A DNA stretch of 64,000 bases. It comes from an uncultured Candidatus Saccharibacteria bacterium (GTDB lineage Bacteria > Patescibacteriota > Saccharimonadia > Saccharimonadales > CAZNVG01). The stretch lies in the NCBI GenBank assembly GCA_964440975.1, contig CAYYKI010000001.1, forward strand, positions 2,591 to 66,590, in the 5' to 3' direction. Numbering within the stretch: position 1 is the stretch's first letter; each line of letters begins with the position of its first letter. This document shows positions 1 to 63,156 of this stretch, in pieces. The translations under genes and the position numbers were made by a program. The notes under the pieces were generated by a model, which saw nothing but the letters and a program-made list of their open reading frames with translations, made no database searches and was not told the DNA's origin.

Positions 1-250
1 TAAGCGATCGTAGTCCCTCTTTCTTAGCACGTAGTTAGCCACTACATTTTTACCCGAATCTATATGTTTGTTTATTGTTTTTATTGCTAGATCCATAGAC
101 TTGTCTAAATCTGTAGCCAAGTTAAAATTTGGGATGGTGTCGTTTAGGTCGTCTACATTAATAAATACGGCATCAAGCTTTTTTGCTAAGGCCTTGGACG
201 TTGTGGTTTTCCCGGAATTTATACTTCCACTTATAAAAACGAGCATGGGT
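1..250 (-). CDS. P-loop NTPase / kinase-like protein, N-terminal part (gene runs off window start)
   Basis: Minus-strand translation from ATG at 248-250: MLVFISGSINSGKTTTSKALAKKLDAVFINVDDLND.... It has a Walker A motif (GSINSGKTT) and no in-frame stop before position 1. It is absent from the ORF track only because it is truncated. The plus-strand ORF 68-259 is its antisense shadow. Confidence 0.5.
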
Positions 251-348
251 ATATCTTAGCAAATAAAAAATCCAGTAGCCCTAGCTAATGGATAGGTTAT
301 CAAATATATAGTTTCGGCTCCCGCTGGGGGCGCTCTTCGAACTAAATG

Positions 349-1005
349 CTACTTTATCGCGACTGATTCAAGTATTTTAACCAGCGTCGGGTAATCGCGA
401 CTGTTCTTGCTGATATCTTGAGAGCTCAAACTACCGGTGACATAGTATTTTCCACTTACAAAGACGATCGACCTTGCTGGCTGTGATTCGTAGCCATATT
501 CGTATTCATAGGCTGGTTTATCTCCGATCTTGCGAGCTTCTTTTGTTGGTCCTTTACCATCAGGCCAATTTTGCAAGCCAGGCTCGAAGCGCTGATCAAG
601 TGTCTTACCTAGTCGATCCTCTACCACCAGGCTAATATTAGTGCCTGCTGTTACAGCCTCACTACCTATAGGTTCGGTTTGCGACTTCATATCGGGACTG
701 TTTATTGTGTATGGCATTAACTTGCCAGCCTCTCCGTAGCCACCACTCTTAGCAGTCCAGTCAGCCGGGTACTTAAAAGTGATGCCGTTTGGATCGTCGC
801 TGTAGGTTTTCCAACCTTCGTAAGGGTCTTTTGATGCTTGTGGTGCCGATGTTGGGCTGTTTGATGATGTTTGTGTAGTAGATTGTGTCTTTTTATCAGT
901 CCGATGCTCTTTTATGTACCAACCGAGTCCACCAATAAGACCTAGGACAACCACAACGATTACAACCTCTACCGCCGAGAAGCCTTTTTGATTGAGTTTT
1001 TTCAT
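349..1005 (-). CDS. prepilin-type N-terminal cleavage/methylation domain protein (type IV pilin-like)
   Basis: N-terminus MKKLNQKG|FSAVEVVIVVVVLGLIGG is a class III (prepilin) signal: Gly at -1, Phe at +1, Glu at +5, then a hydrophobic helix. Start moved to the internal Met (1005) because pilin leaders are short; the ORF-track start was 1035. Confidence 0.6.
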   Translation of the reverse strand: MKKLNQKGFSAVEVVIVVVVLGLIGGLGWYIKEHRTDKKTQSTTQTSSNSPTSAPQASKDPYEGWKTYSDDPNGITFKYPADWTAKSGGYGEAGKLMPYTINSPDMKSQTEPIGSEAVTAGTNISLVVEDRLGKTLDQRFEPGLQNWPDGKGPTKEARKIGDKPAYEYEYGYESQPARSIVFVSGKYYVTGSLSSQDISKNSRDYPTLVKILESVAIK

Positions 1006-1089
1006 GTTCCCATCCTTAAGCATTACTATTTTCACCTAATTATACCCCCCTGAAAAATCCACACAAGACATATGAGGGACTTATACGAG

Positions 1090-4000
1090 TTAGCGTATTG
1101 CCACAGCACCCGATTCTGAACTTAGGCGTTTGAACAGCACATATCGTTTGCCATTGAAGACTCTGGCAAAGCCAGAACGGAGCACTTCTTCACGAGGAAT
1201 CATTGCGACACCACCATAAGTTGCTTTCAAGTCATCCATTCGCCGTAGCACTGCTTGCTCTTCTGCGAGGATTGTCTGGTCGTCTTCATTAAATACTGTT
1301 TCAACGACGTGCTCGCCAATCTCAAAAGCAACAGCCATCTTGCGTGAATCACGTAGTGACTCCTTGGTCTTCTTGAACTTGAGTGATTTAATGCCCGCAG
1401 CGCCAATTAAGCCTGCTAATTCAGGAGCAGACTTCTCGCAGTCGCGCACTTTCTCCAATACGATTACTTGGCTTCTAAAGTTTGAGCCACTCAACGCTAT
1501 GCCACTACGATCATCGATTACAAAACCAAGTTCATCCATAGACTTTACAAAGGTTTCGGAATCTTCAAGGTCGAGCGAGTAAATCATATCGACGACTGCC
1601 TTGCCGCCAGGCTTTAACACCCGGTTTAGCTCGCGTAAGACCTGCAGGCGCTCAACATTTTTTCTGCTCGGAACGAAGCTTGTGTAGTGCAGACCAAGCG
1701 ATAGGTTTACATAATCCATTGAGCCGTCTTGTGCCGGCAAGTTTGTGAAGCTACCCACAATTTGCTGAACGCCAGCCTTAGCAAAGTGCTTTGGATTGAT
1801 ATCGACACTTACGACTGCTTCTGCTAGTTCTTCAGAAATATGCCGCTTCAACATTTCTGGACCAGACGCCACATCGAGTACTCGCAAGTTTTTCGCATCT
1901 TGCTTTCGCTCAGCTACAAACGCGTGGATCAATGTGCCCGATAGCCGTGCGACGTTCGCCTGGTAGCTCCGTGCACCAACCAAGTTTGCGTAACTCTCCG
2001 CATACTCTTGGTCGTACTGTACCAAGAACTTTTTAAAGTCTTCTTCGCCGAGCTCTTTAACGTGTCCGTAAATGCGCATCATCTTATCCCACGACGAGAA
2101 GTAATACTCTGCAAGCTCTGAGTTAACCTCTAAGTTTGGATCGACCTGTTTTTCAGCCTGACGCAACATCTCTCGTTCAATTTCTGAGATTGGCACGCCG
2201 CGCAGTAGCTTTTGCACCGCTTGGTACTTAGTCTGAATATACCGATGAATTCCGTCTTCGATAGTGCCAGCTGCGACAAAGGTTCGTACAATTAGATCTT
2301 GCTTCAAGCCAGGACGATACACGCGAGATCGCTGCTGGTGTTTGTCATAGACCGTCCATGGTTCGTTGTAGAAGTAGACTTCTTCGGCTGCAGAGAAGTC
2401 GACCCCAACGTCAGCCGTTTGGCCACTCACGACCAATAGAACTTTTTGATTGGTCTGGCGGAGCTCGTTTTGAATTTCCAAACGGCGTTCCTTTTTAATT
2501 GAACCATCGACGGTAAAGACCTGCACATCCCTAGGGATATCGAGTGTGTCGAGAATGTGATTGTCGCCGCGCATCACACCGTCGATGTAGTCATTCACGA
2601 ACATAACAACCTTGTCTTTTACGGCAAAGGTCTGGTGAAGAGCTGCACTAACGGCGAATTGCTTGGATCCTTCAATGTTTGGTGTGGCATCAAACATCTG
2701 CGGGTTTAACGTAAACTGGCGAAGAATTCTAAGTTTGTCCATCGGGCTTAACTCGTCTTCTTCAACAAGTAAACTATAGACTTCTTGCTCCTCAGGAGTT
2801 AGCTCAAAGCGCACAACTTCTTCACGTATAGCTGGCATATTGATACTTTCGGCAAGTTCTTTTTGTTGCATGCGAGGTACGAGCAGGCTACGTAGATCAA
2901 GGATATCGCCATTGATGATTTGATTAACCAGCTCTTTGTTTTCGATATCCGCAAATTGTTCTGGGTAGAGTAATTTTAGTGACAATGCAACGTCGCTAAT
3001 AGTGTTTGGTACTGGCGTGCCAGAGAGCATCACGAGATATTTGTCATCTCCGGAAACTTGCTCGGCCAACTCCAACAGATACTCCGAACGCACGCCAGTT
3101 TTGAGGTTTTTAAGCTTGTGGACTTCGTCCGTGATGAGCATGTCGAAGGGCAGTTGCTTCAGCAGCGGCGTGTAAATACCGTTCAGTCTTTCTTGAGAAA
3201 TCACTACATAGTCGTAATCGTTTGGTTCAACATCAGTAAGGTCTTCTGGACTCCCAACAATCAAAACTCGAGGTTCTTGTCCCGGCTTAAAGTAGCCTTT
3301 TTGTTTGCCTTTATCATCAACTTCGCTAGACAAAAAATCCTGCCAAACTTCGACTACATTGCTCGGCACAATAACCAATGCTTGCTGCACACCAAGAATT
3401 TCTTTAGCCATGATAGCCGAGGCACTCTTGCCCAAACCCATCTCGTCAGCGATCAGCATGCGATGCTTGAAGGCAATTTCTTGGACGTTAATACGTTGGT
3501 TAATATCGGGGAAGAGACGGTCATCGCCAAGCGAGTCGACAAGATGGTCTGGTTTGTGAATATTCTCAAAGATCAGCTTGTAGTAAGCTTCAGCCTCGTC
3601 AAGCACTGACTCGAGTTCTGGCGTTATAAAGTCCGCTGTTTCTGCGCGGATGTGTGCGATATAGTCAGCGACCAGCGCAGCACTTGCGTCATCTGGTTCA
3701 AGTTGCCCGGCATCATGCAATGCCCGCAAACAGTCCGCCTTAACAATCTCAGTTAGCCCATCCCGAAAGACCGTTTCGGCTAAGAGTCCGATGCCTTTCT
3801 CAAGCCCTTCAAGAGAGAATTGACCGCGCACAATAAGGTACTCACCCAAATAATCCGTAAGCGCACTTTTAACGTAGGGGACTGGTAACTTTCGATACTC
3901 AGGGTGTTGCTGGTACAAAATGTCTACGGCGTAATCAGAACCAAACAGGCTTACGAGCGATTCGAAATCCTGAGCCTCAATAGACTCGCCTTCGCCTATT

Positions 4001-5232
4001 TCAATAATGAAGTTCTTTAGGTTATTTTGAAGTTTAATTTGTTCAGGATGAACTCCATTATTTGCTTTAATCTCGCGATAGATGTGTATTTGAGCCTTAA
4101 CTCTTTCAGATGATTCTTTGTATAGGTACGTTACTCGATTACCATTTGACGCCCTAAAGACTCCAAAGCAACCATTAGAAAGCGCTCCGACTTCTCCTGC
4201 TATCCGTTCAACATATTTTCTATTAGCACTGATCTCCTCAGCAATCGCTCTAATACTCTGTGCGCCTTCAGGCGGTCTTCCACCTTCAAGTAATCCATTT
4301 ACTCTTACTTCAATTGCTGCAACATAATCATCATAAATGTGCTCGCGCACAATTCCGTTTCCGCATCTATGGTACCCCATACTTTCTTGGTATTGCGGCC
4401 GGAGCTCTTCTATGATTGCATCTACCGTATAGTCATCAATTCCAAATTTGACTGCCAGTCCATGCCGGGTATAAGAACCCTTCGGCGCAGGAACTGACCT
4501 GCCTCTCTCTTCCTTGATTGCTGCAACAAGCTCTGGTTGATAGTAATCTGATACTCTTCCCGTGGAACCTTTTTGGGCTACAACTTGCCCCGGATACCTC
4601 TGAGCTAACGACGCTGCTATTGCTGTTATAGTTTCCTGACTAGCACCAAGCTCTTTTGCAAGAGCTTTATTACTGGCTGCACCTTCGGGTTTAGGCTGGT
4701 GTTTAGCATATTCAGCTGCAATCTTGCTAACCGAAGATGGATCAAAATGTAAGGCAGGGGTACTTGTGGATGTTCCTTTTAGCTCACTTGTTAGCTCCTG
4801 CTCCTCGGCTTCTAACCTACTGATTAATCTTTTAATCGTTGCTACGTCAGTTCCAACTTGACTAGCGATGGAGCTAGCGGTAAGCCATCCTACTTTCGGT
4901 CTGCCTCTATTGGATAAAGCTAGTTTTATTCTCCCTGTAAGCTCTGGTTCATAGTGCTCAGCCCACTTTTTATTATCAAGCCTCAATCTTACAATTGAAT
5001 CCGGAATATCTTCGGCTAGAGTCCTTGCTGTTTTCTTTACCAGACCGACGCTAACCTCGAGTTCTCTTGCAAGGTTAACTGCTGCTGAAGGAAGTTCAGG
5101 CTCTAAATTCCCATTCCCGTTCTCGGTTTGACCACTATACTTACCCTTCTCTTCCTGAGACACATCTAAACTACATACGGAGATGCCAGACTGCGACTCA
5201 AACTTTCCAGCTTCCGGTACGATCTCACTCAT
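1090..5232 (-). CDS. SNF2-family helicase with C-terminal SAM-dependent methyltransferase-like domain and N-terminal tandem HTH-like repeats (1380 aa)
   Basis: SNF2_N motifs: LIADEMGLGKSASAIMAKEIL (motif I) and MLITDEVHKLKN (DExH box). Helicase C-domain: VLLVVSGQTADVGVDFSAAEEVYFYNEPW...QQRSRVYRPG. C-terminal class I methyltransferase motifs: VLDVASGPE (motif I) ... VDIN ... LKPGGKAVV. The N-terminal ~500 aa contain about five repeats of a ~60-aa module ([IL]A.E[LIV]G.....[IV]..[IL]...[LV], plus recurring (H/D)Y.PEL). Confidence 0.7.
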   Translation of the reverse strand: MSEIVPEAGKFESQSGISVCSLDVSQEEKGKYSGQTENGNGNLEPELPSAAVNLARELEVSVGLVKKTARTLAEDIPDSIVRLRLDNKKWAEHYEPELTGRIKLALSNRGRPKVGWLTASSIASQVGTDVATIKRLISRLEAEEQELTSELKGTSTSTPALHFDPSSVSKIAAEYAKHQPKPEGAASNKALAKELGASQETITAIAASLAQRYPGQVVAQKGSTGRVSDYYQPELVAAIKEERGRSVPAPKGSYTRHGLAVKFGIDDYTVDAIIEELRPQYQESMGYHRCGNGIVREHIYDDYVAAIEVRVNGLLEGGRPPEGAQSIRAIAEEISANRKYVERIAGEVGALSNGCFGVFRASNGNRVTYLYKESSERVKAQIHIYREIKANNGVHPEQIKLQNNLKNFIIEIGEGESIEAQDFESLVSLFGSDYAVDILYQQHPEYRKLPVPYVKSALTDYLGEYLIVRGQFSLEGLEKGIGLLAETVFRDGLTEIVKADCLRALHDAGQLEPDDASAALVADYIAHIRAETADFITPELESVLDEAEAYYKLIFENIHKPDHLVDSLGDDRLFPDINQRINVQEIAFKHRMLIADEMGLGKSASAIMAKEILGVQQALVIVPSNVVEVWQDFLSSEVDDKGKQKGYFKPGQEPRVLIVGSPEDLTDVEPNDYDYVVISQERLNGIYTPLLKQLPFDMLITDEVHKLKNLKTGVRSEYLLELAEQVSGDDKYLVMLSGTPVPNTISDVALSLKLLYPEQFADIENKELVNQIINGDILDLRSLLVPRMQQKELAESINMPAIREEVVRFELTPEEQEVYSLLVEEDELSPMDKLRILRQFTLNPQMFDATPNIEGSKQFAVSAALHQTFAVKDKVVMFVNDYIDGVMRGDNHILDTLDIPRDVQVFTVDGSIKKERRLEIQNELRQTNQKVLLVVSGQTADVGVDFSAAEEVYFYNEPWTVYDKHQQRSRVYRPGLKQDLIVRTFVAAGTIEDGIHRYIQTKYQAVQKLLRGVPISEIEREMLRQAEKQVDPNLEVNSELAEYYFSSWDKMMRIYGHVKELGEEDFKKFLVQYDQEYAESYANLVGARSYQANVARLSGTLIHAFVAERKQDAKNLRVLDVASGPEMLKRHISEELAEAVVSVDINPKHFAKAGVQQIVGSFTNLPAQDGSMDYVNLSLGLHYTSFVPSRKNVERLQVLRELNRVLKPGGKAVVDMIYSLDLEDSETFVKSMDELGFVIDDRSGIALSGSNFRSQVIVLEKVRDCEKSAPELAGLIGAAGIKSLKFKKTKESLRDSRKMAVAFEIGEHVVETVFNEDDQTILAEEQAVLRRMDDLKATYGGVAMIPREEVLRSGFARVFNGKRYVLFKRLSSESGAVAIR

Positions 5233-6468: not shown

Positions 6469-7848
6469 CTATGCTGCAAGCCGCTGATCCCACCCTTTAA
6501 GAAGGCTGTTTTTAATAGACTTACGTGCAATAGAATCTTTGCTCGCCGGAAATGTGAGCTGCGCTTTTGCTGGTAGATACAGTACGTATCCCGCAACACC
6601 CCACCATATTATTGCAAGGGTATCATCGGCCCATATGTGCAGCAATAGGCTCGCCACAGCCAGTCCCATGCCAGAAACAAACAGTGTGATTGGCCAACGG
6701 TACTTTCGCATACTGAATGCTCGCAGCAACACAGTGGCATATATCATCACAAACAACACTAGCCCTACAACGCCAACTTCTTGCGCAATCTGTACATAGT
6801 AATTTTCGGCCATACGCGTACCGCTCTTTTGTAAATTAACAGACGCCGGCCCTGCACTACCCGGCCCTGTCCCAAGTGGCTGATTTACAACGTCTTTGAG
6901 CCCAGCCTGCAATGCCGCAATATGACCATCGTTGCTAGTAACGGCAACGTTTGTTTCGTCGGTATGAAAAATGCTGTTCTCTATAAAGTTATTATCGCGG
7001 AAAGCTACCACAATTGCTGCTGCCACAACCATACCGACTACACCAAACGTAAGGCCTCTTTTTAACTGTGCAGGGGTCGCCTGCAATGCCGCATACAATG
7101 CAACCGCCAGCATAGCTGCAATCCACGCCGAGCGCGAAAAAGTACATACCAGCACCGCAAGACTTGCCGCAATCGCAACACGTGCCTGCTGCTTCTTAGC
7201 GCTGCGAACAAGGGGTAATAGTGCGCTCATTAGTACGACAATGTAGGCCCCGAACGGGTTGGGTCCTCGCAGGGTTGAACTGTATCGTAGTACATTCGAT
7301 CCGTCATGGAGCTTAGTGAATGGCCGAATAGTGCCTGGTCCAAAACCAAACCAGCGCAAAAAATCACTTGGTAGGACGGTTATTTGTAGTACGCCAAAAA
7401 CTATCGTCATGAGTCCAGTAGTCAATACTACTTTGGTAAGTAACTTCACGTCTTTTTTGTCTGTGTAGTGATGGGCGAGTATTTGCCCCAACAGGAACAT
7501 CGCTACAATGCGTAGGTTTATCATCAGCCCCGCAATCAACGCTCTCGCCTCCGGTCGACGCCAAGCAGCAATCGCGATATGCAAAACGATGTACCACAGC
7601 ACCAACCAGTTAACTCTGCGCCCCACCATTGCTAATCGCAGTTTTTTGTCTTTTGCAAATAGCCAAAACGCTAGCGGTGTAACTGCAGCAATCATTAGTT
7701 GCGGGACTATCTTAAACCAGTCAATGTGTCCAATGGTTGTGCCCGCCCATACATATATAAGTGCATGAAACGGCACATAGGCGAGTATCAACAAGAACCC
7801 TATCCATAGCAACTTGTTTGCAGTGTCGAGGTATTTGGGCGTAGCCAT
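6469..7848 (-). CDS. polytopic membrane protein, O-antigen ligase/polymerase (Wzy_C)-like
   Basis: About 10-12 predicted TM helices with a large periplasmic loop, sitting in a glycan-biosynthesis context. Family assignment is tentative. Confidence 0.4.
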   Translation of the reverse strand: MATPKYLDTANKLLWIGFLLILAYVPFHALIYVWAGTTIGHIDWFKIVPQLMIAAVTPLAFWLFAKDKKLRLAMVGRRVNWLVLWYIVLHIAIAAWRRPEARALIAGLMINLRIVAMFLLGQILAHHYTDKKDVKLLTKVVLTTGLMTIVFGVLQITVLPSDFLRWFGFGPGTIRPFTKLHDGSNVLRYSSTLRGPNPFGAYIVVLMSALLPLVRSAKKQQARVAIAASLAVLVCTFSRSAWIAAMLAVALYAALQATPAQLKRGLTFGVVGMVVAAAIVVAFRDNNFIENSIFHTDETNVAVTSNDGHIAALQAGLKDVVNQPLGTGPGSAGPASVNLQKSGTRMAENYYVQIAQEVGVVGLVLFVMIYATVLLRAFSMRKYRWPITLFVSGMGLAVASLLLHIWADDTLAIIWWGVAGYVLYLPAKAQLTFPASKDSIARKSIKNSLLKGWDQRLAA

Positions 7849-7853
7849 AGTAT

Positions 7854-9344
7854 ATGAACCATTATGGCGGTTTAGTATCAGTGGTACAATATGCCGGTAG
7901 CGTTATGCGTAATAATTCATCAACGATATACGGCAGCTTTTTGCTTATAGGCGACTTCTTTGCCCTCTTAGGCGCGTTTGTGATCGCCTACATATTTAGG
8001 GTCAGCCTCGATCATCGACCAATTGCCAATCAAATTGGTGCAGTAGAATTCTTACAAATCTTTACCTTGCTGGTACCGATAGTGTTGCTGATATTTGCAT
8101 CGCTTGGGCTCTATAGCCGGGCAATCTATGATAGCCGGGTACGAGAATTTGGACGGCTCATCGTCGGTTCATTCATTGGCATTCTTACCGTCATCAGCTA
8201 TGACTACATCAGTAATAAACCAATCCTGCCAGGTAAGCTTGTTGCACTCTACGCATTACTGCTTGGGTTTACCTTGCTTATTCTTGAACGATCAGTAGCG
8301 CGATGGCTACGAACCGCCCTGTTTAGTTATGGCGTAGGCATCAATAAAATTTTGATTGTCGGGAGCGGACGAACCACCAACGAACTTATTGAGAAAGTGT
8401 CCGACACAAAACACACCGGACAAAAAGTGGTGGCCGTAATAGGTAAAGAATCACCTATTATCCGCAAACTTGATATACCCGTTTACGAATCAATCGACAA
8501 CCTCAAGGAGATGGACGTCGACACGGTCATTCAAACGTCCTACCTTAACGACGACACTCTAACCAAAGACCTGATCGCGCGCGCGCAAGACGCCCATATT
8601 GCGTATCAGTTCTTGCCGGAGCAAACACGCCTGTACAGCGGTAACGCAAGTGTGGAGCTCTATCAAGGCCTCCCGATAGTTTCGGTGCACCCAACGGCGT
8701 TAATCGGCTGGGGAAGATTAGTGAAGCGCGGTTTTGATGTAATAAGCAGTCTTTTATTTCTGGTAGTTCTGTCGCCGGTTTTTGTGATTATCGGGCTAGC
8801 TATCAAGCTAACCGATCCAAGGGGTCCGATTTTGTTTCGACAAAAACGATTAACACGCTTTGATCAAGAATTCACGGTCTATAAATTCCGAAGTATGAAA
8901 CAAAAGTACAGTGGTCGCGGCGGTGATGAAATGGAAATTTTCAAAAAAATGGGCCGCCCAGATTTGGCAGAGGAATTCGAAAAAAATCGTGGCAAGGTAG
9001 CCAACGATCCACGAATCACCAGAGTTGGTCGCATCTTGCGCGCAACCAGTATGGACGAATTGCCACAATTCTTTAATGTACTTCGTGGCGATATTAGCCT
9101 TGTCGGGCCGCGCGCAATTGTCGAACATCATGCACAAGAATATAAAGAGAATCGATCGCTCATGTTAAGCGTCAAGACAGGCATCACCGGACTTGCTCAA
9201 GTATCTGGCCGCGACGACCTGTCACTGCAGGAACGCATTAATCTTGATATATATTATGTACAAAACTGGAGTTTTTGGATGGACCTCGGAATAATCTTTA
9301 AGACAGTGTATATATTGCTTTGGCGTAAAGGATTCAGGTCGTAA
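7854..9344 (+). CDS. polyprenyl-phosphate sugar phosphotransferase (WbaP/exopolysaccharide 'bacterial sugar transferase' family)
   Basis: C-terminal domain KRGFDVISSLLFLVVLSPVFVIIGLAIKLTDPRGPILFRQKRLTRFDQEFTVYKFRSM...DELPQFFNVLRGDISLVGPRA is the canonical sugar-transferase signature. N-terminal TM region plus a CoA-binding-like domain. Confidence 0.8.
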   Translation: MNHYGGLVSVVQYAGSVMRNNSSTIYGSFLLIGDFFALLGAFVIAYIFRVSLDHRPIANQIGAVEFLQIFTLLVPIVLLIFASLGLYSRAIYDSRVREFGRLIVGSFIGILTVISYDYISNKPILPGKLVALYALLLGFTLLILERSVARWLRTALFSYGVGINKILIVGSGRTTNELIEKVSDTKHTGQKVVAVIGKESPIIRKLDIPVYESIDNLKEMDVDTVIQTSYLNDDTLTKDLIARAQDAHIAYQFLPEQTRLYSGNASVELYQGLPIVSVHPTALIGWGRLVKRGFDVISSLLFLVVLSPVFVIIGLAIKLTDPRGPILFRQKRLTRFDQEFTVYKFRSMKQKYSGRGGDEMEIFKKMGRPDLAEEFEKNRGKVANDPRITRVGRILRATSMDELPQFFNVLRGDISLVGPRAIVEHHAQEYKENRSLMLSVKTGITGLAQVSGRDDLSLQERINLDIYYVQNWSFWMDLGIIFKTVYILLWRKGFRS

Positions 9345-9385: not shown

Positions 9386-10540
9386 ATGAACGATTTCATT
9401 ATCAAACCAGCCAAGCAGCCAAACAAACCACGTGTTGCATTAGTGTGTGACTGGCTTACTGGTGGCGGCGCGGAAAGAGTTATGAAGGCGCTGCATCAAA
9501 TCTATCCAGATGCACCTATATATACTAGCTACGCCAGCCCTGCACAGCGACGAGTCTTTGATACTGCCGACGTTCGCACAAGCGGATTTTTGCAAACAAA
9601 ACTCGGCGGCAAATTACGAAAGTTCTTGCCAATCCTTCGTGAACGCTACTTTGAAAAGCTAGACCTTGGTGATTATGACATTGTGATATCTGCCAGTGGC
9701 GCAGAAGCTAAGGGGGTAAAAGTAGGAGAGGGCACACTACACATTAATTACTGTCACTCCCCTACCCATTACTACTGGGTGCGCTACGACGAATATGTCT
9801 CCAATCCTGGGTTTGGGTACTTTAATCCGATTGCGCGTCTAGGGCTCCGCATACTTGTTGCCAGTAGGCGTAAATGGGATCGAGCTGCGGCCCAAAGACC
9901 CCACATCATCATTGCTAATTCTTCGGTAACCCGTGACCGTATAGCCGAATACTACGGTCGTGAATCCACTGTAATATTTCCACCGGTAGACGTCGAGCAT
10001 TTTGGACTCAACACTAAACACAAGCGTATCGGCTTTGTTATCGCTGGTAGACAAACGATGTACAAGCGCTTCGATTTAGCAGTCGAGGTCTGTTCAAAAT
10101 TAAACCTCCCACTAAAAGTGGTTGGCGACGGCCCTGAACATAAAACATTGCGCTCAATTGCCGGCCCCAATGTAGAGTTCTTTACGAATGTGTCAGACAC
10201 AGAAATGGTGCATCACTTCCAAACAGCCGAGGCCTTTTTGTTTCCCGGCCTTGAAGACTTTGGTATAACACCGGTGGAGGCAATGGCCTGCGGCACTCCG
10301 GTACTGGCATATAAGGCTGGTGGCGCCCTTGATTACGTTGTACCGGGCCTAAGCGGTGATTTTTTTGCTCAGCAGACGGCTGCCTCACTACGTACGGCAC
10401 TGCGCGATTTCGATGCTTCTACGTACGAGCCACAAGCAATTCGTGCACATGCCGAAAAGTTTTCTACGCAAAAATTTGCTCAAGCAATTCATGCTTTTGT
10501 CGATAACGAATACGCTGCCTTTTCAGACAACAAACAGTAG
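9386..10540 (+). CDS. glycosyltransferase family 4 (GT-B, retaining)
   Basis: FLFPGLEDFGITPVEAMACGTPVLAYKAGGALDYV carries the EX7E-type motif. Confidence 0.8.
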   Translation: MNDFIIKPAKQPNKPRVALVCDWLTGGGAERVMKALHQIYPDAPIYTSYASPAQRRVFDTADVRTSGFLQTKLGGKLRKFLPILRERYFEKLDLGDYDIVISASGAEAKGVKVGEGTLHINYCHSPTHYYWVRYDEYVSNPGFGYFNPIARLGLRILVASRRKWDRAAAQRPHIIIANSSVTRDRIAEYYGRESTVIFPPVDVEHFGLNTKHKRIGFVIAGRQTMYKRFDLAVEVCSKLNLPLKVVGDGPEHKTLRSIAGPNVEFFTNVSDTEMVHHFQTAEAFLFPGLEDFGITPVEAMACGTPVLAYKAGGALDYVVPGLSGDFFAQQTAASLRTALRDFDASTYEPQAIRAHAEKFSTQKFAQAIHAFVDNEYAAFSDNKQ

Positions 10541-10542
10541 CC

Positions 10543-11028
10543 TTAGCGATGTTTTTTACGGAGATGTTTCTTTTCTGGACCCTTAAAGACCCAGAAACGG
10601 AATACCACATAATTCCAAAAGGTAAAGAAGAATGCTGCTAAATATTTGCCCCAATTCGGCGAAATACCATAGCGTTCCAAAACTTCTAGTATGACTACCG
10701 TTATGGCGTAATTAATAACCAGGACAATAGCATACCGTCGCGTTTCTTTTTTGATAGGATCACGCTTAGTCTGATTCTTAAAAACCCAGGCCCGCTCCAG
10801 TATGAAGTTTACGACGATTCCCACAACGTATGCCGGTGCTTGGGCGACCGGTACAGTCAGATCAAAGTGATTAAATCCTATATAAAACGTTAGATAGTCT
10901 GCATAAAAAACGATAATACCTGTGACTAGATACTGGATGACAGCACCCTTTAAAACCAGCCGCCACACGCCGTTTGAAGATTGCGCACTTGTTTTGCCTT
11001 TATTTTTTTGTAACCTTTTGCCAGCCAT
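10543..11028 (-). CDS. GtrA-like family membrane protein
   Basis: About 160 aa with 4 TM helices; the VIQYLVTGIIVFYADYLTFY...NFILERAWVFKN pattern is typical of the GtrA family. Confidence 0.55.
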   Translation of the reverse strand: MAGKRLQKNKGKTSAQSSNGVWRLVLKGAVIQYLVTGIIVFYADYLTFYIGFNHFDLTVPVAQAPAYVVGIVVNFILERAWVFKNQTKRDPIKKETRRYAIVLVINYAITVVILEVLERYGISPNWGKYLAAFFFTFWNYVVFRFWVFKGPEKKHLRKKHR

Positions 11029-11254
11029 ACTAGTTATGATTATAAACTAGCTGGATACCTGTAATGTAAATACTTTTGGATCGATAATAAGTTTGACAAG
11101 CAGTGAGTACGATTCTAAGGGCGATAGCCGAAGCCATCACATGCCTGCATAAACGGAACCCGTAGGGGTCCACCAGTAGCCGAAGCCGCTGATGGACCCC
11201 ATGGGCCCGGTCCCGTCGGATCTCAGTTGTTGTGCGCGGTTCTACCGCCGTCGA

Positions 11255-12049
11255 TCAGGACGTGGAGGCCGCCGTCTCGCTGGAGGCGTCGGGGTCGAGA
11301 CCCTCGCTGCCGCCGCTGGAGGCGCCCGCTCCCGACCACCAGTCGTCGCCGTTGGACGTGTCGGGGTCGAGACCACCGCCGCTGCTGCCGCTGCCACCGT
11401 CGGTCGATGCCGTCGTCTGCTGACGCGAGCCGGGGGAACCCCAGCCGTCGTCGAAGCTGCCGAAGACGGGCTGCCTGGAGGAGCCGAAGGGCCTGCCGAA
11501 GCCGCCGATGACGCGCAGGCCACCGATGTCGCCGGACAGGTTCCCGAAGAGGGCGCCACCGAACAGCTGCTCGAGGTTGAGAGAACCGCTGGCCTGCTGC
11601 AACTCGCCGAGGTAGTCGGTCAGGACCGGCTTGTACAGCCAGCTGGTGACCACGTCGACGACACCCTTGCCGACGATGCCCGGGAGGGCACGTCGGATGA
11701 CCTCCGCCGGCAGCGGCAGGTGCACCGTGGCGGTGATGGTGAGCGAGAGGCTGACGTCGTCGATCTCGGCGTTGAGGGTCGACACGATCTCGCCGGACGA
11801 ACCGTCGGTGGACGCGTCGTAGCCCTTCATCGCGCTGAACACGGAGTCGAGGCCGCGCGGGACAGCGGTGTTGAGGTTCTTGACGAGACGCTGCTGCGCC
11901 GTGTCGGCGATGGCGGCGAGCGTCTCGTCGTCCATCGATCCGGAGACGATGGTGGCAGGGTCGTAGGTCAGCTCGAGGACGGTGTTGATGGACGCGTGCG
12001 TGAACGAGACGTACGCCGCACGTGTGATCTGATGTCGATTGGACTGCAT
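11255..12049 (-). CDS. hypothetical protein encoded in a ~70% GC patch (264 aa; Gly/Ser/Asp-rich C-terminus)
   Basis: ORF with extreme GC3: nearly every codon ends in G/C (atg cag tcc aat cga cat cag atc ...). AGGAG sits about 11 nt upstream of the ATG. The overlapping plus-strand ORFs are Arg-rich antisense shadows. Confidence 0.5.
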   Translation of the reverse strand: MQSNRHQITRAAYVSFTHASINTVLELTYDPATIVSGSMDDETLAAIADTAQQRLVKNLNTAVPRGLDSVFSAMKGYDASTDGSSGEIVSTLNAEIDDVSLSLTITATVHLPLPAEVIRRALPGIVGKGVVDVVTSWLYKPVLTDYLGELQQASGSLNLEQLFGGALFGNLSGDIGGLRVIGGFGRPFGSSRQPVFGSFDDGWGSPGSRQQTTASTDGGSGSSGGGLDPDTSNGDDWWSGAGASSGGSEGLDPDASSETAASTS

Positions 12050-12360
12050 CGGAATGCTTTCTCCTCGCTATGGCAGGGTTGCCTAGCTCCCATTCATTAG
12101 GGGGCTATATGTGTACTCTTGACACACAAAGTGAGGACCAAACCCAGCTTCACCGAGCTTAGTTCTCACCTCGTGTATCTAAACTGCTTGTCAAGGAGCT
12201 TTGGAGCAAAATGCGCCAGTATATACACCGGCTGCAAACTCCGCTCAACAAAACTTTGCAAATTATAGTGTTTTTATTGCATATTGTCAATAGCTTTATG
12301 ACTGCAACCTTGTTTACTGTTATATGTTGTTTTAAACGCAAGACGGTATACTATTTTTAG

Positions 12361-13353
<993 letters not shown>

Positions 13354-19356: not shown

Positions 19357-19815
19357 CTAGGCGGATGTTGCGTGTTTTCCCGTCATTTGTTTACTTTTGC
19401 TAAATACAAACTTGCTGTTAAGAATATAGTTCCATATCAACGCGACTGCAGACCCTATTGCCAACGCAAGCCCATAAAACACATGGCCGTAATGAACTAG
19501 TGCGATTACTATGCCGCTATTAATACCTATACCCGCCCACGCTGTCATATGAAATTTTGCAAATTTTTTGTGTGTCGGATGGTGTTCGTGGCCAGTAAAG
19601 GCCCAGTAATTATTGCCGGTAAATGTGGCTAACAGGGCCAACTCTGCGCCAAATAGCTGCGCAATAACTATTGGTAGCGATAGTACGTCGTAGAGTGCTA
19701 TCAACGATATGTAGTTAACAATAAATCCTACAGTTCCGACGATCGCAAACCTTATAAAGCTGCGCTTTATCCATGTATTATAAAGTCTAATTACGCGTTG
19801 AATTATTTCCCTCAT
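19357..19815 (-). CDS. GtrA-like family membrane protein
   Basis: 152 aa, 4 TM helices; FIRFAIVGTVGFIVNYISL...NYILNSKFVFS is the GtrA pattern. It is adjacent to a GT2 gene, the classic GtrA/GtrB pairing. Confidence 0.55.
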   Translation of the reverse strand: MREIIQRVIRLYNTWIKRSFIRFAIVGTVGFIVNYISLIALYDVLSLPIVIAQLFGAELALLATFTGNNYWAFTGHEHHPTHKKFAKFHMTAWAGIGINSGIVIALVHYGHVFYGLALAIGSAVALIWNYILNSKFVFSKSKQMTGKHATSA

Positions 19816-19872: not shown

Positions 19873-20685
19873 ATGACCAAGAGTGGACAAAATAAACACA
19901 TCAAGTCAACCCTGTTATCTATTGTTATCCCTGCCTACCAGGAACAAAAGATCATTGGTAAATCACTTAATACCCTTCATGCCTATTTGCAAAAGGAAAA
20001 ACTGCTCACCAAGTGTGAGGTAATTGTAGTATCAGCAGATGGTAAAGACAAAACTGCCCAGATCGCTAAGCGTTATGCTAAATTATTTCAACATTTTCAG
20101 GTTATTCAGCCTGGACCAAAGGCAGGAAAAGGCCGTGATGTTCGAGTTGGAGTGCTCGCGTCCAAAGCTAAATACGTTTTGTTTATGGATGCCGACCTTG
20201 CTACTCCATTACACCACATAAGAAGCCTTCTTGCCTCTCTAGAGGACGGGGCAGACATAGTGATAGGAGTACGCCGCTTAACTCGAATACATAGCGGTGT
20301 GCGAATGTATGTATCGATTTTTGGAAATCTTCTTTCGCGACTTATATTGCTCCCAAGAATCAGTGACACACAATGTGGTTTTAAGGGCTTCACAAGACAA
20401 GCAGCACAAAAAATATTTCGTGTTCAGCAAATAAATGGCTGGGGTTTTGACATGGAGGTACTTGCCATTGGGAAAAACTGGAAATTACGAATCCAAGAAG
20501 TACTAATCGATGATTGGCATGATCCAAAGATTGAACAGGGATTAGTCGGAGAATCTCGGATATCGGCAGTAGTCAACACGCTTACTGAACTATTCATAAT
20601 TCGCATACGACTGCTACGCGGAGTATATGATGCAAAACCAACAACTCAACGAGCCCGAAGTACTGGGTTGTCAAATAGAACTTGA
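19873..20685 (+). CDS. GT2 glycosyltransferase (dolichyl/undecaprenyl-phosphate hexosyltransferase-like)
   Basis: LSIVIPAYQEQ ... SADGKDKT ... FMDADLATP are GT-A motifs. Confidence 0.75.
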   Translation: MTKSGQNKHIKSTLLSIVIPAYQEQKIIGKSLNTLHAYLQKEKLLTKCEVIVVSADGKDKTAQIAKRYAKLFQHFQVIQPGPKAGKGRDVRVGVLASKAKYVLFMDADLATPLHHIRSLLASLEDGADIVIGVRRLTRIHSGVRMYVSIFGNLLSRLILLPRISDTQCGFKGFTRQAAQKIFRVQQINGWGFDMEVLAIGKNWKLRIQEVLIDDWHDPKIEQGLVGESRISAVVNTLTELFIIRIRLLRGVYDAKPTTQRARSTGLSNRT

Positions 20686-51531: not shown

Positions 51532-53472
51532 CTATTGCATAGGCCCGTTAGGTTGCGTATTTTGCGGCCCGGGAGCGGGTGCTGACTCCAACGGTTCGTC
51601 TAGGTAGTCCTGGTCTTCTTCGGCGGTGGCTCGCTCCTGCTGCTGTTGCTGTAGCTGCGCGGGGTTTGTGGTGATAAGACTGGCTTCTGTGGGGCTTGGA
51701 GTGATTTGGATATGAACGTGATTCTGGCCAGCAAAGAACAAGCCCTGCCCTACCGGGAACTGACTCAGTCGCTTTCGTTCTTCACTGGTGAGCTTGAACG
51801 TGTCTGCCAGTACGTCTACGGCACTCGTGGATTGCTTGAGGAGAATTTGCATTGAGGCGTTAGCGACAATCGCCCGTCCCATGCGCGACCCCATAAAGTC
51901 TTCAACATCCTGCGTGATGGTCGTTAACCCAAGGTAGTATTTACGGCAACGCTTAGCAATGCTAAAGAGGAAGCTAGCTGAATCCTCATACTTCATTAGC
52001 TGCCACGCCTCATCAACAAGTAGCAGTCGTTTTTTCTTATCGGATTTAGTGCGATTCCAGATGTAGTTGAGCACAATATACATGGCAACTGGGCGGAGTT
52101 CGTCCTCGAGATCACGAATATTAAACACCACCAGCGCATTGTTAATGTCAACATTTGATTGCTGAGAGAAAATACCCGCAAACGTACCACTCGTATATTT
52201 GCGCAGTCGTTGGGCTAATTGTGGACCGGTGCCACCCATATGAAGCAGCGTATCGTATAGGTCGTTGATGGTTGGGGGCGGCGATTTGTGTGTCAACGGG
52301 TCGGTTGTGATCCCGGCTTTGGCATAGGTGTCGATGAGGGCTTGGTCGAGGTCGGCTTCCTCAACAGGATTAAGCGCTGGCGCGAACTGCCCGGCACCCT
52401 CGCCGGCCATTTGTGCTTGCGCCCCACCCATCATCAAGCGTAATAGCCCATGCAATGTAATGAGATTAGACCGCAAGGCGTTGTCCCCGTCGTCGGTATC
52501 GATGACCTGTGGCAAATCAAACGGATTAATGCGTGTTTGCGAATTAAGACTCAGGCGAATGTACGAACCACCGACTGCTTCACACATGCGTTGGTATTCA
52601 TTCTCCGGGTCAATAATCATCACCTCGGTGCCAAGCATCATGCTGCGGAGCGCCTCTAATTTAACCGTGAACGACTTACCGGCGCCTGCCTTTGCAAATA
52701 CCACTGAGTTAGCGTTCTCTAACGTAAAGCGGTCAAAGATCACCAGTCCCGAGTTGTGCATATTGATGCCATACAAAATACCATTCTCTTGGCTCAAATC
52801 GGCCGAGGTAAAAGGAAAGCTAGTGCTAATTGCACCCGTGTTCATGTTGCGCCTAATTTGCAGCTGATCCATAAATTGCGGGACGATGGAGTTGAATCCT
52901 TGTTCCATTTGAGCGGTTGCTGCTTTGCTATAGACGAGCTGCTGGCCAAGAATTGACTCGATTTTATGATGAATGAAATCGAGTTCTTCCAGGCTGCTCG
53001 CATATACATTCATATACAAGCCAAAGCGGAAGAACCGCTCTTCACCTACTTGGAGCTTATCTCGGAGCTCTTCGGCGTCGAGAATGGCAGCTTGCTTTCC
53101 TGGATCACGGACGCGTCCCTTCTCGTTATCAATCTGGATCCCTGCCTCTAGTTGAGAGACTTTTTTGCGCAAATTATCTAGCACCACCTGGCTCTCCACC
53201 GGATAGATATAGATAGAGATGTTCATTTCTTCATCTATGTTGATGATGGGGCTCAGCCAGCCGGTAAATATTTGACGCGGATATCCGTACACATAAAACG
53301 TGCGTGCGTAGCGGGTGCCAAGTCGGAAGTAGCCAGACTGATACTCCAAGCTGCTCGGAGCAATAAAATCGCGGAGCGCCGTTACACCCTTTTGGAACGC
53401 CTGCTCAACCTCTTGCTGTTCGCGAAGACGCTGTTCCTCTGCTATTTGAATTGGATCTTTCTTCTTTGCCAT
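51532..53472 (-). CDS. VirB4/TrbE/CagE-family type IV secretion ATPase
   Basis: N-terminal VirB4 region (DFIAPSSLEY...YFRLGTRYARTFYVYGYPRQIFTGWL), Walker A KAGAGKSF, Walker B LLLVDEAWQL. 646 aa. Confidence 0.85.
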   Translation of the reverse strand: MAKKKDPIQIAEEQRLREQQEVEQAFQKGVTALRDFIAPSSLEYQSGYFRLGTRYARTFYVYGYPRQIFTGWLSPIINIDEEMNISIYIYPVESQVVLDNLRKKVSQLEAGIQIDNEKGRVRDPGKQAAILDAEELRDKLQVGEERFFRFGLYMNVYASSLEELDFIHHKIESILGQQLVYSKAATAQMEQGFNSIVPQFMDQLQIRRNMNTGAISTSFPFTSADLSQENGILYGINMHNSGLVIFDRFTLENANSVVFAKAGAGKSFTVKLEALRSMMLGTEVMIIDPENEYQRMCEAVGGSYIRLSLNSQTRINPFDLPQVIDTDDGDNALRSNLITLHGLLRLMMGGAQAQMAGEGAGQFAPALNPVEEADLDQALIDTYAKAGITTDPLTHKSPPPTINDLYDTLLHMGGTGPQLAQRLRKYTSGTFAGIFSQQSNVDINNALVVFNIRDLEDELRPVAMYIVLNYIWNRTKSDKKKRLLLVDEAWQLMKYEDSASFLFSIAKRCRKYYLGLTTITQDVEDFMGSRMGRAIVANASMQILLKQSTSAVDVLADTFKLTSEERKRLSQFPVGQGLFFAGQNHVHIQITPSPTEASLITTNPAQLQQQQQERATAEEDQDYLDEPLESAPAPGPQNTQPNGPMQ

Positions 53473-54497
53473 TACATTGCCAACGTATTATCTAGATTAG
53501 GTTGCGAAGCTTCACCTTGTCCTTTGGTAACTACTGGCGCGGTGAGATCATCGAAGTTTTGGATCTGCTGACGGGTGGCTGTATCTGGATTGTAAACATC
53601 GTAATATAACTCTATAAGCTCCTGGGTATCGAGCGGCAGGGCCTGGATTCCCATTTGGGTGAGGCTGTTAAGCACTGCCTGAACCTGGTTGCGCAATTCT
53701 GTTTTTGCCTTTTCAAGCGTTGCCTCATCAATAACCACGGTCTCTTGCTTTTTATTGAAGCCAAAGATGTTATCGAAAAAGCTTTTACCCTTTTGGACTG
53801 TCTGGGCGGTTGTGTTCGGTGGTGTATACGGAATGACCATGTAAAACTTCTTGTCCATGATATTGGTTTGCTGGGTCAATACGGCCATAAACTCTATGTA
53901 GTCTTCCATCAAAAGTGCGAGCAGCATATTGTCGTGCTCGAGTCGGATTTTATTGAGGCGTTCCAGGTATGGGCGCATGTCAACTTTAGTGCTTTTGATA
54001 AATATCTGCACCGGAAAATAGAGCGAGTTCAAAAAGCTCTGATAACTAAACTCTACCGCCTCTCGTTCACCCTGGCTCATGAGGTCAAAGTTGATCGTCT
54101 TACACATAATAACCGACCGAAACGTTCCGTCGTTCATGATGACGACCCCGTCACGAATTTCGCTTATCTTGAGCGTATTTTGGGTACTGTTCGGGTTTGT
54201 CTTGGCCGGTGGCGTCTGACCGAGTGGCTTGCCGTTCTGGTCGACTTGGCCAGCTTGCACCTGACCTGGTACAGCTGGTGTCCCCACTGGCCCACCAGTG
54301 GGTACACCGGGCGTCATAGAGGCATCGGGAATCGCCTGCTGCGCCTGCATCATTGGAGTGACCGCATATTGCGCAACATGCGCCTGCTGATCGTTGGGCG
54401 TTGCTTGTGGGGGTGGAGGCGTGGTTGGCACTCCCTGGTACCCAGGGGGAGCTTGACCGCCGGCCGGTGGTTGGAATTGGTTTTGTTGTGGATCCAT
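53472..54497 (-). CDS. T4SS-associated hypothetical protein with Pro/Gln-rich disordered N-terminus
   Basis: 341 aa, no TM helix. Its stop overlaps the VirB4-like start, indicating translational coupling. Confidence 0.4.
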   Translation of the reverse strand: MDPQQNQFQPPAGGQAPPGYQGVPTTPPPPQATPNDQQAHVAQYAVTPMMQAQQAIPDASMTPGVPTGGPVGTPAVPGQVQAGQVDQNGKPLGQTPPAKTNPNSTQNTLKISEIRDGVVIMNDGTFRSVIMCKTINFDLMSQGEREAVEFSYQSFLNSLYFPVQIFIKSTKVDMRPYLERLNKIRLEHDNMLLALLMEDYIEFMAVLTQQTNIMDKKFYMVIPYTPPNTTAQTVQKGKSFFDNIFGFNKKQETVVIDEATLEKAKTELRNQVQAVLNSLTQMGIQALPLDTQELIELYYDVYNPDTATRQQIQNFDDLTAPVVTKGQGEASQPNLDNTLAM

Positions 54498-60237: not shown

Positions 60238-60374
60238 ATTCACGGTTATTATAGGCCTTTGGCGATACGGCCACAAGTATTTGATAGCCATTTCTGGTCA
60301 GCTCAATTCGCTGAGGCGTTTACAGCTTACGGCAGATATGATTGAATGAACATATTCGGTATACTAATAAAAAG

Positions 60375-61824: not shown

Positions 61825-61825
61825 T

Positions 61826-62655: not shown

Positions 62656-62722
62656 CCTTGCATAGCTGGGGTCAAACTGCTAGCATACAAAAGATAAGAT
62701 AGTTACTAAACAGGAAAACAAC

Positions 62723-63136: not shown

Positions 63137-63156
63137 GTACCGCACGAACGAAAACT

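Follow-up and report, generated by a model that had tools for sequence, protein, structure and literature searches.

A 0.9-kb high-GC island with an orphan, apparently chimeric gene in the gtrA-rmlB slot of a probable Saccharimonadia-type Patescibacterium

The window analysed here, a stretch of 64,000 nucleotides, includes a cell-surface polysaccharide locus with genes for Wzy_C, Bac_transf, GT4, GtrA, RmlB and RmlA, and between gtrA and rmlB its base composition changes abruptly. When GC is read in 200-nt windows, positions 11100-11999 give 0.635-0.735 and the flanks 0.36-0.51; when it is read in 1-kb bins, the bin at 11001-12000 reaches 0.639, whereas the remaining 63 bins range from 0.388 to 0.547. 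The top 900-nt window (GC 0.678) lies 6.4 SD out from the non-island windows (mean 0.467, sd 0.033, maximum 0.581). GC rises from 0.40 to 0.60-0.70 across 11090-11160 and is down to 0.47 at 12020, and fine-scale GC and GC3 profiles place the island proper, a high-GC foreign body, at 11120-12019, where GC is 64-73% against 39-55% in the surrounding chromosome, a shift of +21 points. The high-GC patch in a lower-GC locus that the first-pass annotation had claimed is thus borne out; the right end of the interval that it had drawn (11120-12075) is not, as GC3 puts the end of the foreign sequence near 12019. The island is made up of codons 11-264 of an open reading frame (ORF) and 135 nt of 3′ untranslated sequence.

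This ORF lies on the minus strand at 11255-12049, encodes 264 amino acids and has GC1/2/3 values of 0.61/0.53/0.90, whereas GC3 in 29 genes of the recipient is 0.46 ± 0.04, with a maximum of 0.56; the deviation from the rest of the window in GC3 and codon usage is clear, and both composition and codon usage mark the patch as foreign. A second ORF of 302 amino acids runs along the plus strand at 11192-12100, and its GC1 of 0.86 and GC3 of 0.61 are the signature of an antisense frame, a shadow of the gene and not a gene itself. All frames had been described as open across the patch, which is true of these two antiparallel ORFs, but the others measure only 63-105 amino acids. The minus strand is the coding frame because GC3 periodicity and the frame itself survive in two very different tail alleles, one in the window and the other in a second strain (L001, assembly GCA_964532835.1), both of which, despite indels, keep GC3 near 0.9 to the same stop codon. 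Both public assemblies call the wrong strand: the protein collection contains the 302-aa plus-strand product (P0005) but lacks the 264-aa one, and the annotation of L001 repeats the antisense miscall. Gene callers trained on low-GC sequence picked the shadow ORF, with the consequence that protein databases lack the true product and searches there cannot see it, and small foreign islands in other metagenome-assembled genomes are probably miscalled in the same way.

The 264-aa product is predicted to be soluble: it is acidic (pI 4.29), and sequence prediction gives it neither a transmembrane segment nor a signal peptide. It would consist of an ordered N-domain at about residues 10-170 and a disordered tail, rich in Gly, Ser, Asp and Trp, at residues 191-264. 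Such a tail had been noted in the first-pass annotation together with a hydrophobic core; the tail stands, while the core does not qualify as a membrane segment (19-residue Kyte-Doolittle maximum of 1.19). The N-domain is identical in the window and in L001, and a duplication within it, considered as a candidate, is not supported. By contrast, the tail tract at 11292-11458 (minus strand) is hypervariable and accounts for every difference between the two copies of the island, with 74 codons after the motif RQPVF in the window and 83 in L001, and with large in-frame indels around the shared core GLDxDxSxGxDWWSGAGASS. The tract also contains a 39-nt internal repeat. Diversification by a DGR-type system was rejected, as large indels and substitutions of every kind separate the alleles, and no second copy of the tail that could serve as template repeat is found in the 64 kb.

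The beginning of the gene is different in character from its body. The first ten codons (MQSNRHQITR; 12020-12049, minus strand) have recipient-like composition, with G or C at the third position in 5/10, whereas each later block of ten has 8-10/10; among 46 actinobacterial genes with GC3 of at least 0.85, none has a start with 5/10 or fewer. These ten codons are thus probably, as judged by their composition, the recipient-derived start of a chimeric gene. They are preceded by a strong AGGAG Shine-Dalgarno (SD) sequence and by a structured 5′ leader of about 205 nt with recipient-like GC (12050-12255, minus strand), upstream of which lies a perfect sigma-70 promoter, TTGACA-17-TATAAT (12262-12290, minus strand), that points into leader and ORF. 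This site, with 12/12 matches, is the sole one of its kind in the 64 kb, where 0.05 would be expected by chance, and none occurs in 32 other loci. As the first ten codons, the SD, the leader and the promoter are all recipient-like in composition, a chimeric, promoter-captured gene is suggested.

The leader has a predicted fold of -89.1 kcal/mol (z = -6.2; 0/200 shuffles were equally stable), in which 16/78 pairs are G-U, whereas its opposite strand reaches -63.8 kcal/mol (z = -1.75). The fold comprises a first hairpin at 12198-12254, a 27-bp hairpin at 12121-12179 and an anti-SD element at 12192-12197 paired with the SD at 12062-12067 (all on the minus strand), the pairing probability of the SD being 0.63-1.0. 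According to this model, the leader would mask the SD and gate translation. No Rfam family matched at E ≤ 1 in 10500-12800, a covariance model of the leader found no further match in the window or in 18 loci, and BLAST with the leader returned no match; the two copies of the leader are identical. Lying under a perfect promoter, it is a candidate new cis-regulatory RNA on thermodynamic grounds.

Downstream of the ORF, two hairpins fall within the 3′ untranslated part of the island. Hairpin A (11165-11200, minus strand) reaches -29.5 kcal/mol and has no U tract; its 12-bp helix continues, past an internal mismatch of 1 nt, into three more pairs (G-C, G-C and C-G) that close a UUCG tetraloop. Hairpin B (11121-11140, minus strand) lies at the left edge of the island and has an 8-bp stem and a UUCG loop. 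Both have in common the 11-nt core TAGCCGAAGCC, and hairpin A is a candidate terminator or stabiliser brought in with the foreign DNA. The island is bracketed by a perfect 12-bp inverted repeat, with its left arm TTGACAAGCAGT at 11093-11104 and its right arm ACTGCTTGTCAA at 12183-12194 (both given on the plus strand), the latter at the base of the large hairpin of the leader. The repeat, a doubtful candidate for the ends of a mobile element, has no other copy in the 64 kb, no extension past 12 bp and no target duplication; by our estimate, about 0.06 such repeats would be expected locally. The orphan is the sole gene of the island, at which no integrase, IS element or target-site duplication was found; neither microhomology nor duplication was identified at its junctions, and the 64 kb contain no tRNA. 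Besides the patch itself, which the first-pass annotation had described, the locus thus presents a probable chimeric start, a consensus promoter, a structured leader, a hypervariable tail and a wrong-strand annotation in both assemblies.

The organism itself is probably a Patescibacterium of the Saccharimonadia type, as indicated by the architecture of its type IV secretion system (T4SS) and by one named RmlB relative. A VirB4 gene of the CD1110 family (MPF_FATA-type) lies at 51532-53472 and a TrsD-like gene at 53472-54497, about 7 kb away from dnaA, dnaN and recF (40.4-45 kb), and seven tandem PF18895 genes (T4SS_pilin, VirB2-like) follow at 60342-63677. In its VirB4 and TrsD genes, their proximity to dnaA/dnaN and the VirB2-like pilin array, this arrangement matches the pattern described in Patescibacteria, where the VirB4 is chromosomal and of the MPF_FATA type and no relaxase accompanies it (bioRxiv 10.1101/2025.01.22.634366). 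The sole named relative of the RmlB is from Candidatus Microsaccharimonas (70% identity); the window holds no rRNA or ribosomal protein, and its proteins are all singletons at 90% identity. A Saccharibacteria-type epibiont, as the first-pass annotation had supposed, is therefore probable from the VirB4 and TrsD genes, the pilin array and the RmlB relative. Saccharibacteria live as epibionts on Actinobacteria and have natural competence (PMC10633639).

We consider that the locus is best explained, with a probability of about 0.6, by the recent horizontal acquisition of some 0.9 kb of DNA, likely actinobacterial, that was fused into a chimeric regulated gene in the gtrA-rmlB slot. In this model, an unsampled high-GC organism would have been the source of a fragment of about 0.9 kb that entered the variable slot with most of an ORF and two GC-rich UUCG hairpins but no mobility genes. 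The 5′ end of the fragment would have been joined in frame to a recipient-like start codon and about ten codons, and the recipient-like sequence would also have supplied a strong SD, an SD-masking leader of about 205 nt and the sole perfect sigma-70 promoter. The outcome would be a regulated fusion gene, and its 264-aa product, acidic and soluble, would have a tail that is diversifying between strains. Entry may have occurred via natural transformation and illegitimate recombination, expression would be under leader-mediated control, and the protein is presumably functional. As a best guess, it would be a dispensable, strain-variable accessory factor tied to the envelope or to interaction with a host. 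The insertion would be very recent because the DNA is unadapted (GC3 of 0.90), has no homolog and is common to two near-identical strains only.

It could also be thought that a random piece of foreign high-GC DNA was integrated and is tolerated, with an ORF that has no function and is kept open by GC-rich sequence that is poor in stop codons, an alternative that we regard as unlikely but worth serious consideration. The antisense frame is, after all, open for 302 codons as well, and the identity of the N-domain in both copies means that purifying selection cannot be read from the pair. Additionally, the searches yielded no homolog, family, fold or defence-system match. The 264-aa protein has no homolog in about 15 billion proteins, whether by word-indexed search of 5.8 billion clusters or by exhaustive phmmer against 1.84 billion representatives, and a search with the antisense product found none either. 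No credible homolog was found in species-representative genomes, Actinomycetota included, nor any homolog in JGI metagenomes and IMG/VR viral contigs; with tblastn, 50,697 phage records yielded nothing and 72,556 plasmids nothing credible, as plasmid matches at E = 0.7 were set aside as noise. A match in a Tannerella metagenome-assembled genome (L002) was likewise rejected, as it reflects a chance LTITATVH pattern in a repetitive surface protein of 1762 amino acids. Pfam, NCBIfam, PHROGs and PADLOC returned no credible match (the lone entry, at E = 0.31, was a PHROG whose function is unknown), and PDB sequences no match at E ≤ 10. AlphaFold2 models reached a pLDDT of 46 for the full protein and 51 for the N-domain, which is too low for use, and Foldseek with the low-confidence model against the PDB gave nothing meaningful (best E of 0.14). 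By contrast, a mere passenger sits poorly with two very divergent tail alleles that, with their indels, keep both the frame and the high GC3 to the same stop, with an ORF that starts exactly at a strong SD downstream of the sole perfect promoter and a strand-specific structured leader, and with an island kept in two strains between which recombination tracts make up the other differences.

The origin of the DNA was addressed through synonymous-codon likelihoods under nine high-GC references, mostly plasmids and phages, of which five were from Actinomycetota and the others from Thermus, Xanthomonas, Deinococcus and Cupriavidus. The model of the recipient gave -1.99 bits/codon, the five Actinomycetota -1.17 to -1.25 (-290 to -309 bits in total) and the four outgroups -1.32 to -1.37 (-328 to -340 bits), with each actinobacterial reference at least 19 bits ahead of each outgroup for the window allele. 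The ranking is the same for the L001 allele, although the lowest-scoring Actinomycetota reference is there only about 5 bits ahead of Thermus. When the N-domain is taken alone, all Actinomycetota references stand above the four outgroups, and the tail alone gives nearly the same order, Xanthomonas tying with the lowest actinobacterial reference. As a control, samples of 250 codons were drawn, and 75-100% of trials returned the model of origin; the Actinomyces phage Av-1 reference (GC3 of 0.57) is uninformative as a high-GC model. Actinobacterial-type codon usage, as first proposed, is thus upheld among the nine high-GC references tested.

It is nevertheless conceivable, if rather improbable, that the transfer is real and its donor was not actinobacterial, that is, that the DNA came from another high-GC bacterial or archaeal phylum, from a eukaryote, or from a mobile element or virus of these. 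The codon test had only four non-actinobacterial references, in a set without haloarchaea, Alphaproteobacteria, Myxococcota and eukaryotes; no actinobacterial homolog appears in species-representative genomes or protein collections, and orphan genes are typical of the accessory genes of phages and plasmids. Against such donors, the five Actinomycetota references beat the outgroups with both alleles and the N-domain, and nearly so with the tail; CTC is preferred over CTG (1.9) and GTC over GTG (3.5), which is the actinobacterial direction, and a mobile-element source finds no credible tblastn match in the phage, plasmid and IMG/VR collections. The search for relatives in Actinomycetota that the first-pass annotation had recommended found none there or in any other taxon, and this weighs against a sampled actinobacterium as donor because a recent transfer should leave a near-identical donor gene. 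The donor would be a high-GC organism that is unsampled, in all likelihood an actinobacterium and possibly the epibiont's own host. The host-to-symbiont transfer that had been raised at first is backed by no homolog and is a possibility drawn from composition, codon usage and lifestyle.

That the gene is native to the lineage, with its GC raised locally by selection or biased repair, seems very improbable. The sole other copy is indeed in the same lineage and has the same GC. However, GC3 of 0.90 against GC2 of 0.44-0.53 speaks for genome-wide mutational bias and not for selection at the protein level, GC elsewhere in the 64 kb does not exceed 0.58 in any window of 900 nt, and the codon likelihoods strongly reject the recipient model. 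The ORF is also missing from 13 related loci with the same GT4 gene as neighbour, and no comparable island is present in any of them; the island is known in the window and L001 only, and another locus (L012) has a HAD-like gene of 42% GC in the same GT4-rmlB slot, so that the distribution in sister genomes, a check that the first-pass annotation had advised, is patchy. An exact empty-site sister genome was not found among the loci compared. One candidate (L003) was rejected as an empty site, its GT4 being 25% identical and thus no ortholog and its rmlB being high-GC and at a contig end; synteny upstream of rmlB is conserved at none of the loci that encode the closest RmlB relatives (L004-L009).

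An assembly chimera or contamination, in which a high-GC read or fragment was misjoined into a low-GC contig, as the first-pass annotation had also envisaged, is hardly credible in spite of the abrupt switch in composition, a 10-N gap within the patch of L001 and a low-to-high GC junction at a contig end in the unrelated L003 locus, because the assembly of a different strain, with 54 substitutions confined to mosaic tracts and another tail allele, reproduces both junctions base for base, and because the ORF is in frame with recipient-like start codons and SD. The two junctions, separated by about 900 bp, are both in the interior of a 112-kb contig, and the insertion is, as far as the assembled sequences tell, in the chromosome.

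The preferred reading, a captured foreign fragment, may be compared with several known systems. Atypical islets in surface-polysaccharide loci (O-antigen or capsule type) likewise show an abrupt break in GC and codon usage inside a glycan locus, with slot cargo that varies, as in L012, and strain-level mosaic recombination around it. Here, however, the cargo is an orphan soluble protein and not a glycan enzyme, the GC shift of +21 points is extreme, and integrase, IS element, tRNA and target-site duplication are all missing. Horizontally acquired genes have been reported in these lineages, for instance those unique to mammal-associated Saccharibacteria (PMC7427843), and the T4SS of Patescibacteria has been proposed to be monoderm-derived (bioRxiv 10.1101/2025.01.22.634366). 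Those transfers share with the present case a probable epibiont recipient, an inferred Gram-positive or actinobacterial source and competence as the uptake route (PMC10633639), but they were recognised from the phylogeny of identifiable, composition-adapted genes, whereas here the DNA is unadapted and the gene has no homolog. Promoter capture after illegitimate recombination also places a foreign body in frame with start codons, SD, leader and promoter of the recipient type, although the fusion is read here from composition, with no junction microhomology or duplication identified. Similarly, SD-sequestering leaders of the riboswitch or RNA-thermometer type have a long, strand-specific, structured 5′ region whose SD is base-paired with an anti-SD; unlike those families, this leader has no Rfam match, no homologs for covariation and no identified ligand or alternative fold.

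A wider interpretation, which we put forward tentatively and at well below even odds, is a very recent flow of DNA from host to epibiont, in which a competent Saccharimonadia bacterium took up a fragment of the genome of its unsampled actinobacterial host, integrated it without any mobile element and, by joining it to a strong resident promoter, a structured leader that masks the SD and a start codon, made of it a new chimeric gene whose tail is diversifying between strains. One possibility is that the product then acts on the host or mimics it, for instance as cargo of the nearby T4SS. If the donor was the host of the epibiont, the island would show cleanly how a member of the Patescibacteria has captured host DNA that is still unadapted, and several matters would become testable: whether competence feeds gene gain in reduced-genome epibionts, how new genes come under the control of promoters already in place and whether the hosts of uncultured epibionts may be inferred from composition.

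The island is a genuine and recent horizontal acquisition, an orphan gene whose codon usage is of actinobacterial type, on what is probably a Saccharimonadia chromosome. The compositional jump is extreme, and it is real: GC content, taken in 200-nt windows, is 0.37-0.44 at 10900-11199, 0.635-0.735 over 11100-11999 and again 0.36-0.43 by 12100-12400. The 1-kb bin 11001-12000 (GC 0.639) is the only one of the 64 above 0.55, the others ranging from 0.388 to 0.547, and the richest 900-nt window (GC 0.678) lies 6.4 SD from the remainder (mean 0.467, sd 0.033, maximum 0.581). Similarly, the minus-strand 264-aa ORF (11255-12049) has GC1/2/3 of 0.61/0.53/0.90, while host genes (n=29) show a GC3 of 0.46 ± 0.04, with a maximum of 0.56. 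The first-pass annotation was thus right about an abrupt jump with G or C at nearly all third positions. Of the patch it delimited, 11120-12075, the high-GC body stands and the right end does not: codons 1-10 of the ORF have G or C at 5 of 10 third positions and each later block at 8-10 of 10, which places the foreign body at approximately 11120-12019.

An assembly chimera or contamination, which the same annotation had offered as the alternative, is rejected. The flanking proteins sit on a 112,248-bp NCBI contig, and the patch occupies the same place in a second assembly (GCA_964532835.1, contig CAZHJQ010000118.1; locus L001), whose sequence is identical to that of the window through both junctions. 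If the join were chimeric, independent data would not repeat it at both internal junctions, and the two assemblies represent different strains. Outside the island they differ by 54 substitutions, all within two mosaic tracts: one at the 3′ end of GT4 (10216-10513; 24 synonymous and 3 non-synonymous) and one at the 5′ end of gtrA (10819-11048; 15 synonymous and 11 non-synonymous, with a single further substitution in the intergenic DNA immediately upstream of the gene). Window 9639-11048 is otherwise identical to L001, with about 9% divergence in these short tracts, a pattern that indicates homologous recombination with a diverged relative inside the glycan locus. Within the island, a single substitution (11461) adds to these, and the tail allele is strongly divergent.

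This tail, the C-terminal 74 residues, is rich in Gly/Ser/Asp/Trp. The window has 74 codons after the residues RQPVF and L001 has 83, with large in-frame indels around a kept core (GLDxDxSxGxDWWSGAGASS) and the last 11 residues identical. As GC3 is maintained in both alleles, these in-frame indels support the minus frame as coding. The variation would stem either from an internal 39-nt repeat that slips or recombines rapidly, or from a divergent allele having replaced the earlier one. The overlapping plus-strand ORF of 302 aa has GC1 0.86 and GC3 0.61, the mirror image of the minus frame, and is therefore an antisense shadow. It is, in fact, what both public assemblies call (302 aa at 11192-12100, plus strand, in the window; 269 aa at 245-1054, minus strand, in L001). 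As a consequence, the 264-aa product is missing from the 15-billion-protein collection, and the public protein collection holds the 302-aa antisense product of the source contig (P0005) in its place, so that searches of protein databases cannot see the real gene.

The 264-aa protein is acidic (pI 4.29) and soluble by prediction, with a maximum 19-residue hydropathy of 1.19 and no predicted signal peptide. Two AlphaFold2 runs concur on a secondary structure of beta-hairpin and long helix, twice, at low confidence (pLDDT 46 and 51), and a fold search with this low-confidence model was uninformative. No match was found in Pfam, NCBIfam, PADLOC or the PDB, and one PHROG of unknown function was obtained at E = 0.31. 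No homolog, in Actinomycetota (the check proposed initially) or elsewhere, was found in any source searched: there was no match among 5.8 billion clusters (word-indexed search) or 1.84 billion representatives (exhaustive phmmer), in phages, in JGI metagenomes or in IMG/VR viral contigs; 185,579 species-representative genomes, scanned as DNA, gave one chance match, and plasmids only matches at E = 0.7. Since gene callers choose the antisense ORF here, its product was also used as a query, and it found only itself.

Synonymous-codon likelihoods were compared between five high-GC Actinomycetota references and four other high-GC taxa; in control trials on 250-codon samples, the correct model was recovered 75-100% of the time. 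The ORF scores -290 to -309 bits under Streptomyces, a Microbacterium phage, Gordonia, Rhodococcus and Pseudarthrobacter, against -328 to -340 bits under Thermus, Xanthomonas, Deinococcus and Cupriavidus; the host codon model is far worse (-1.99 bits/codon). Scored by itself, the N-domain also places the actinobacterial references above the outgroups, as does the L001 allele; for the tail alone this order is nearly kept, Xanthomonas being level with the lowest actinobacterial reference. Among the taxa tested, therefore, the actinobacterial-type usage described at first reading is borne out, and the donor is an unsampled organism.

The island gene is probably connected to the recipient's own expression signals. 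A perfect TTGACA-17-TATAAT promoter (12290-12262, minus strand), the sole copy in 64 kb (0.05 expected) and absent from 32 other loci, precedes a leader of about 205 nt with host-like GC. The leader folds at -89.1 kcal/mol (z = -6.2; none of 200 shuffles as stable) and its opposite strand only at -63.8 kcal/mol (z = -1.75); 16 of the 78 pairs are G-U, which argues for a structure that acts as RNA. In the predicted fold, an anti-Shine-Dalgarno stretch (12192-12197) pairs with the Shine-Dalgarno (SD) sequence (12062-12067) with a probability of 0.63-1.0. The leader has no Rfam match and no structural homolog. In 87 annotated actinobacterial genes, codons 1-10 average 8.0 GC3 positions, and none of the 46 with GC3 ≥ 0.85 is as low as 5; the ten host-like codons thus suggest a chimeric gene with a start derived from the recipient. 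Beyond the stop, within high-GC DNA, lie two hairpins (-29.5 and -11.9 kcal/mol) that have UUCG loops and lack a U tract. The island is bracketed by a 12-bp perfect inverted repeat, TTGACAAGCAGT (arms 11093-11104 and 12183-12194), which is unique in the window and through which the 5′ leader and 3′ end of the minus-strand transcript could base-pair.

Roughly one in four genes of the window carries a GGTATAaT-type -10 box just 7-13 nt ahead of the start codon, for instance those at 349-1035, 19357-19815, 19873-20685 and 54551-55591; such boxes also precede rmlB (12338-12345) and gtrA (11041-11046), the latter with its own TATAAT 12 nt ahead of the start. An SD-like motif is present in just 14 of 44 genes. 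This arrangement suggests that leaderless or short-leader transcription may be widespread in this lineage, and sets the long leader and strong SD of the island gene apart as unusual for this genome.

The surrounding surface-polysaccharide locus reads Wzy_C, Bac_transf, GT4, GtrA, island, RmlB, RmlA. The GT4 neighbour is encoded in 13 JGI loci at 49-62% identity, the Wzy-transferase-GT4 order is kept in 6, and a syntenic relative (L012) runs on to RmlB (69%) and RmlA (75%). The island is present in the window and L001; neither the ORF nor any GC island occurs in the 13 JGI loci, and the GT4-rmlB slot of L012 holds a 257-aa HAD-like gene (42% GC, minus strand). The site is therefore a slot for variable cargo, with the island restricted to this lineage. 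None of the relatives' loci gives an exact empty site. In the stretch from the GT4 stop to the HAD-like gene, L012 carries a perfect 28-bp inverted repeat (7131-7158/7270-7297, spacer about 111 nt); this repeat is a possible bidirectional terminator or miniature element. Additionally, on an unrelated contig (L003; ENA ERZ27234174 k141_275783; about 45% GC), the terminal 1.4 kb (7001-8385), containing rmlB, leaps to 66-70% GC beside choline-binding, LicD and GT4 genes, a second low-to-high junction at a glycan locus; lying at a contig end, it may be a chimera.

With dnaA, dnaN and recF at 40.4-45 kb, the window is chromosomal. About 7 kb away, a CD1110/MPF_FATA-type VirB4 adjoins a TrsD-like gene (51.5-54.5 kb), and seven tandem T4SS_pilin (PF18895) genes form a VirB2-like array beside this cluster (60342-63677, plus strand). 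This matches the T4SS architecture reported for Patescibacteria, namely VirB4 with TrsD, often near dnaA/dnaN, and VirB2-like pilin arrays, the latter especially common in Saccharibacteria and Microgenomates (bioRxiv 10.1101/2025.01.22.634366). All tested window proteins are singletons at 90% identity; the nearest RmlB is 76% identical, and the sole relative with an organism name is Candidatus Microsaccharimonas sp. (70%). Judging from this architecture and the RmlB relatives, the recipient is likely a Saccharimonadia-type epibiont. ARAGORN found no tRNA or tmRNA genes in the full 64 kb (1-64000), and a 1380-aa protein (1090-5232, minus strand) fuses an SNF2-type helicase domain to a C-terminal class I methyltransferase domain.

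Small compositional islands of this kind are already known. Saccharibacteria are epibionts of Actinobacteria and naturally competent via ComEC (PMC10633639), which offers a plausible path by which a high-GC fragment without mobility genes would have been taken up; host-to-symbiont transfer is plausible. Speculatively, the 264-aa protein would be a dispensable, strain-variable accessory factor.
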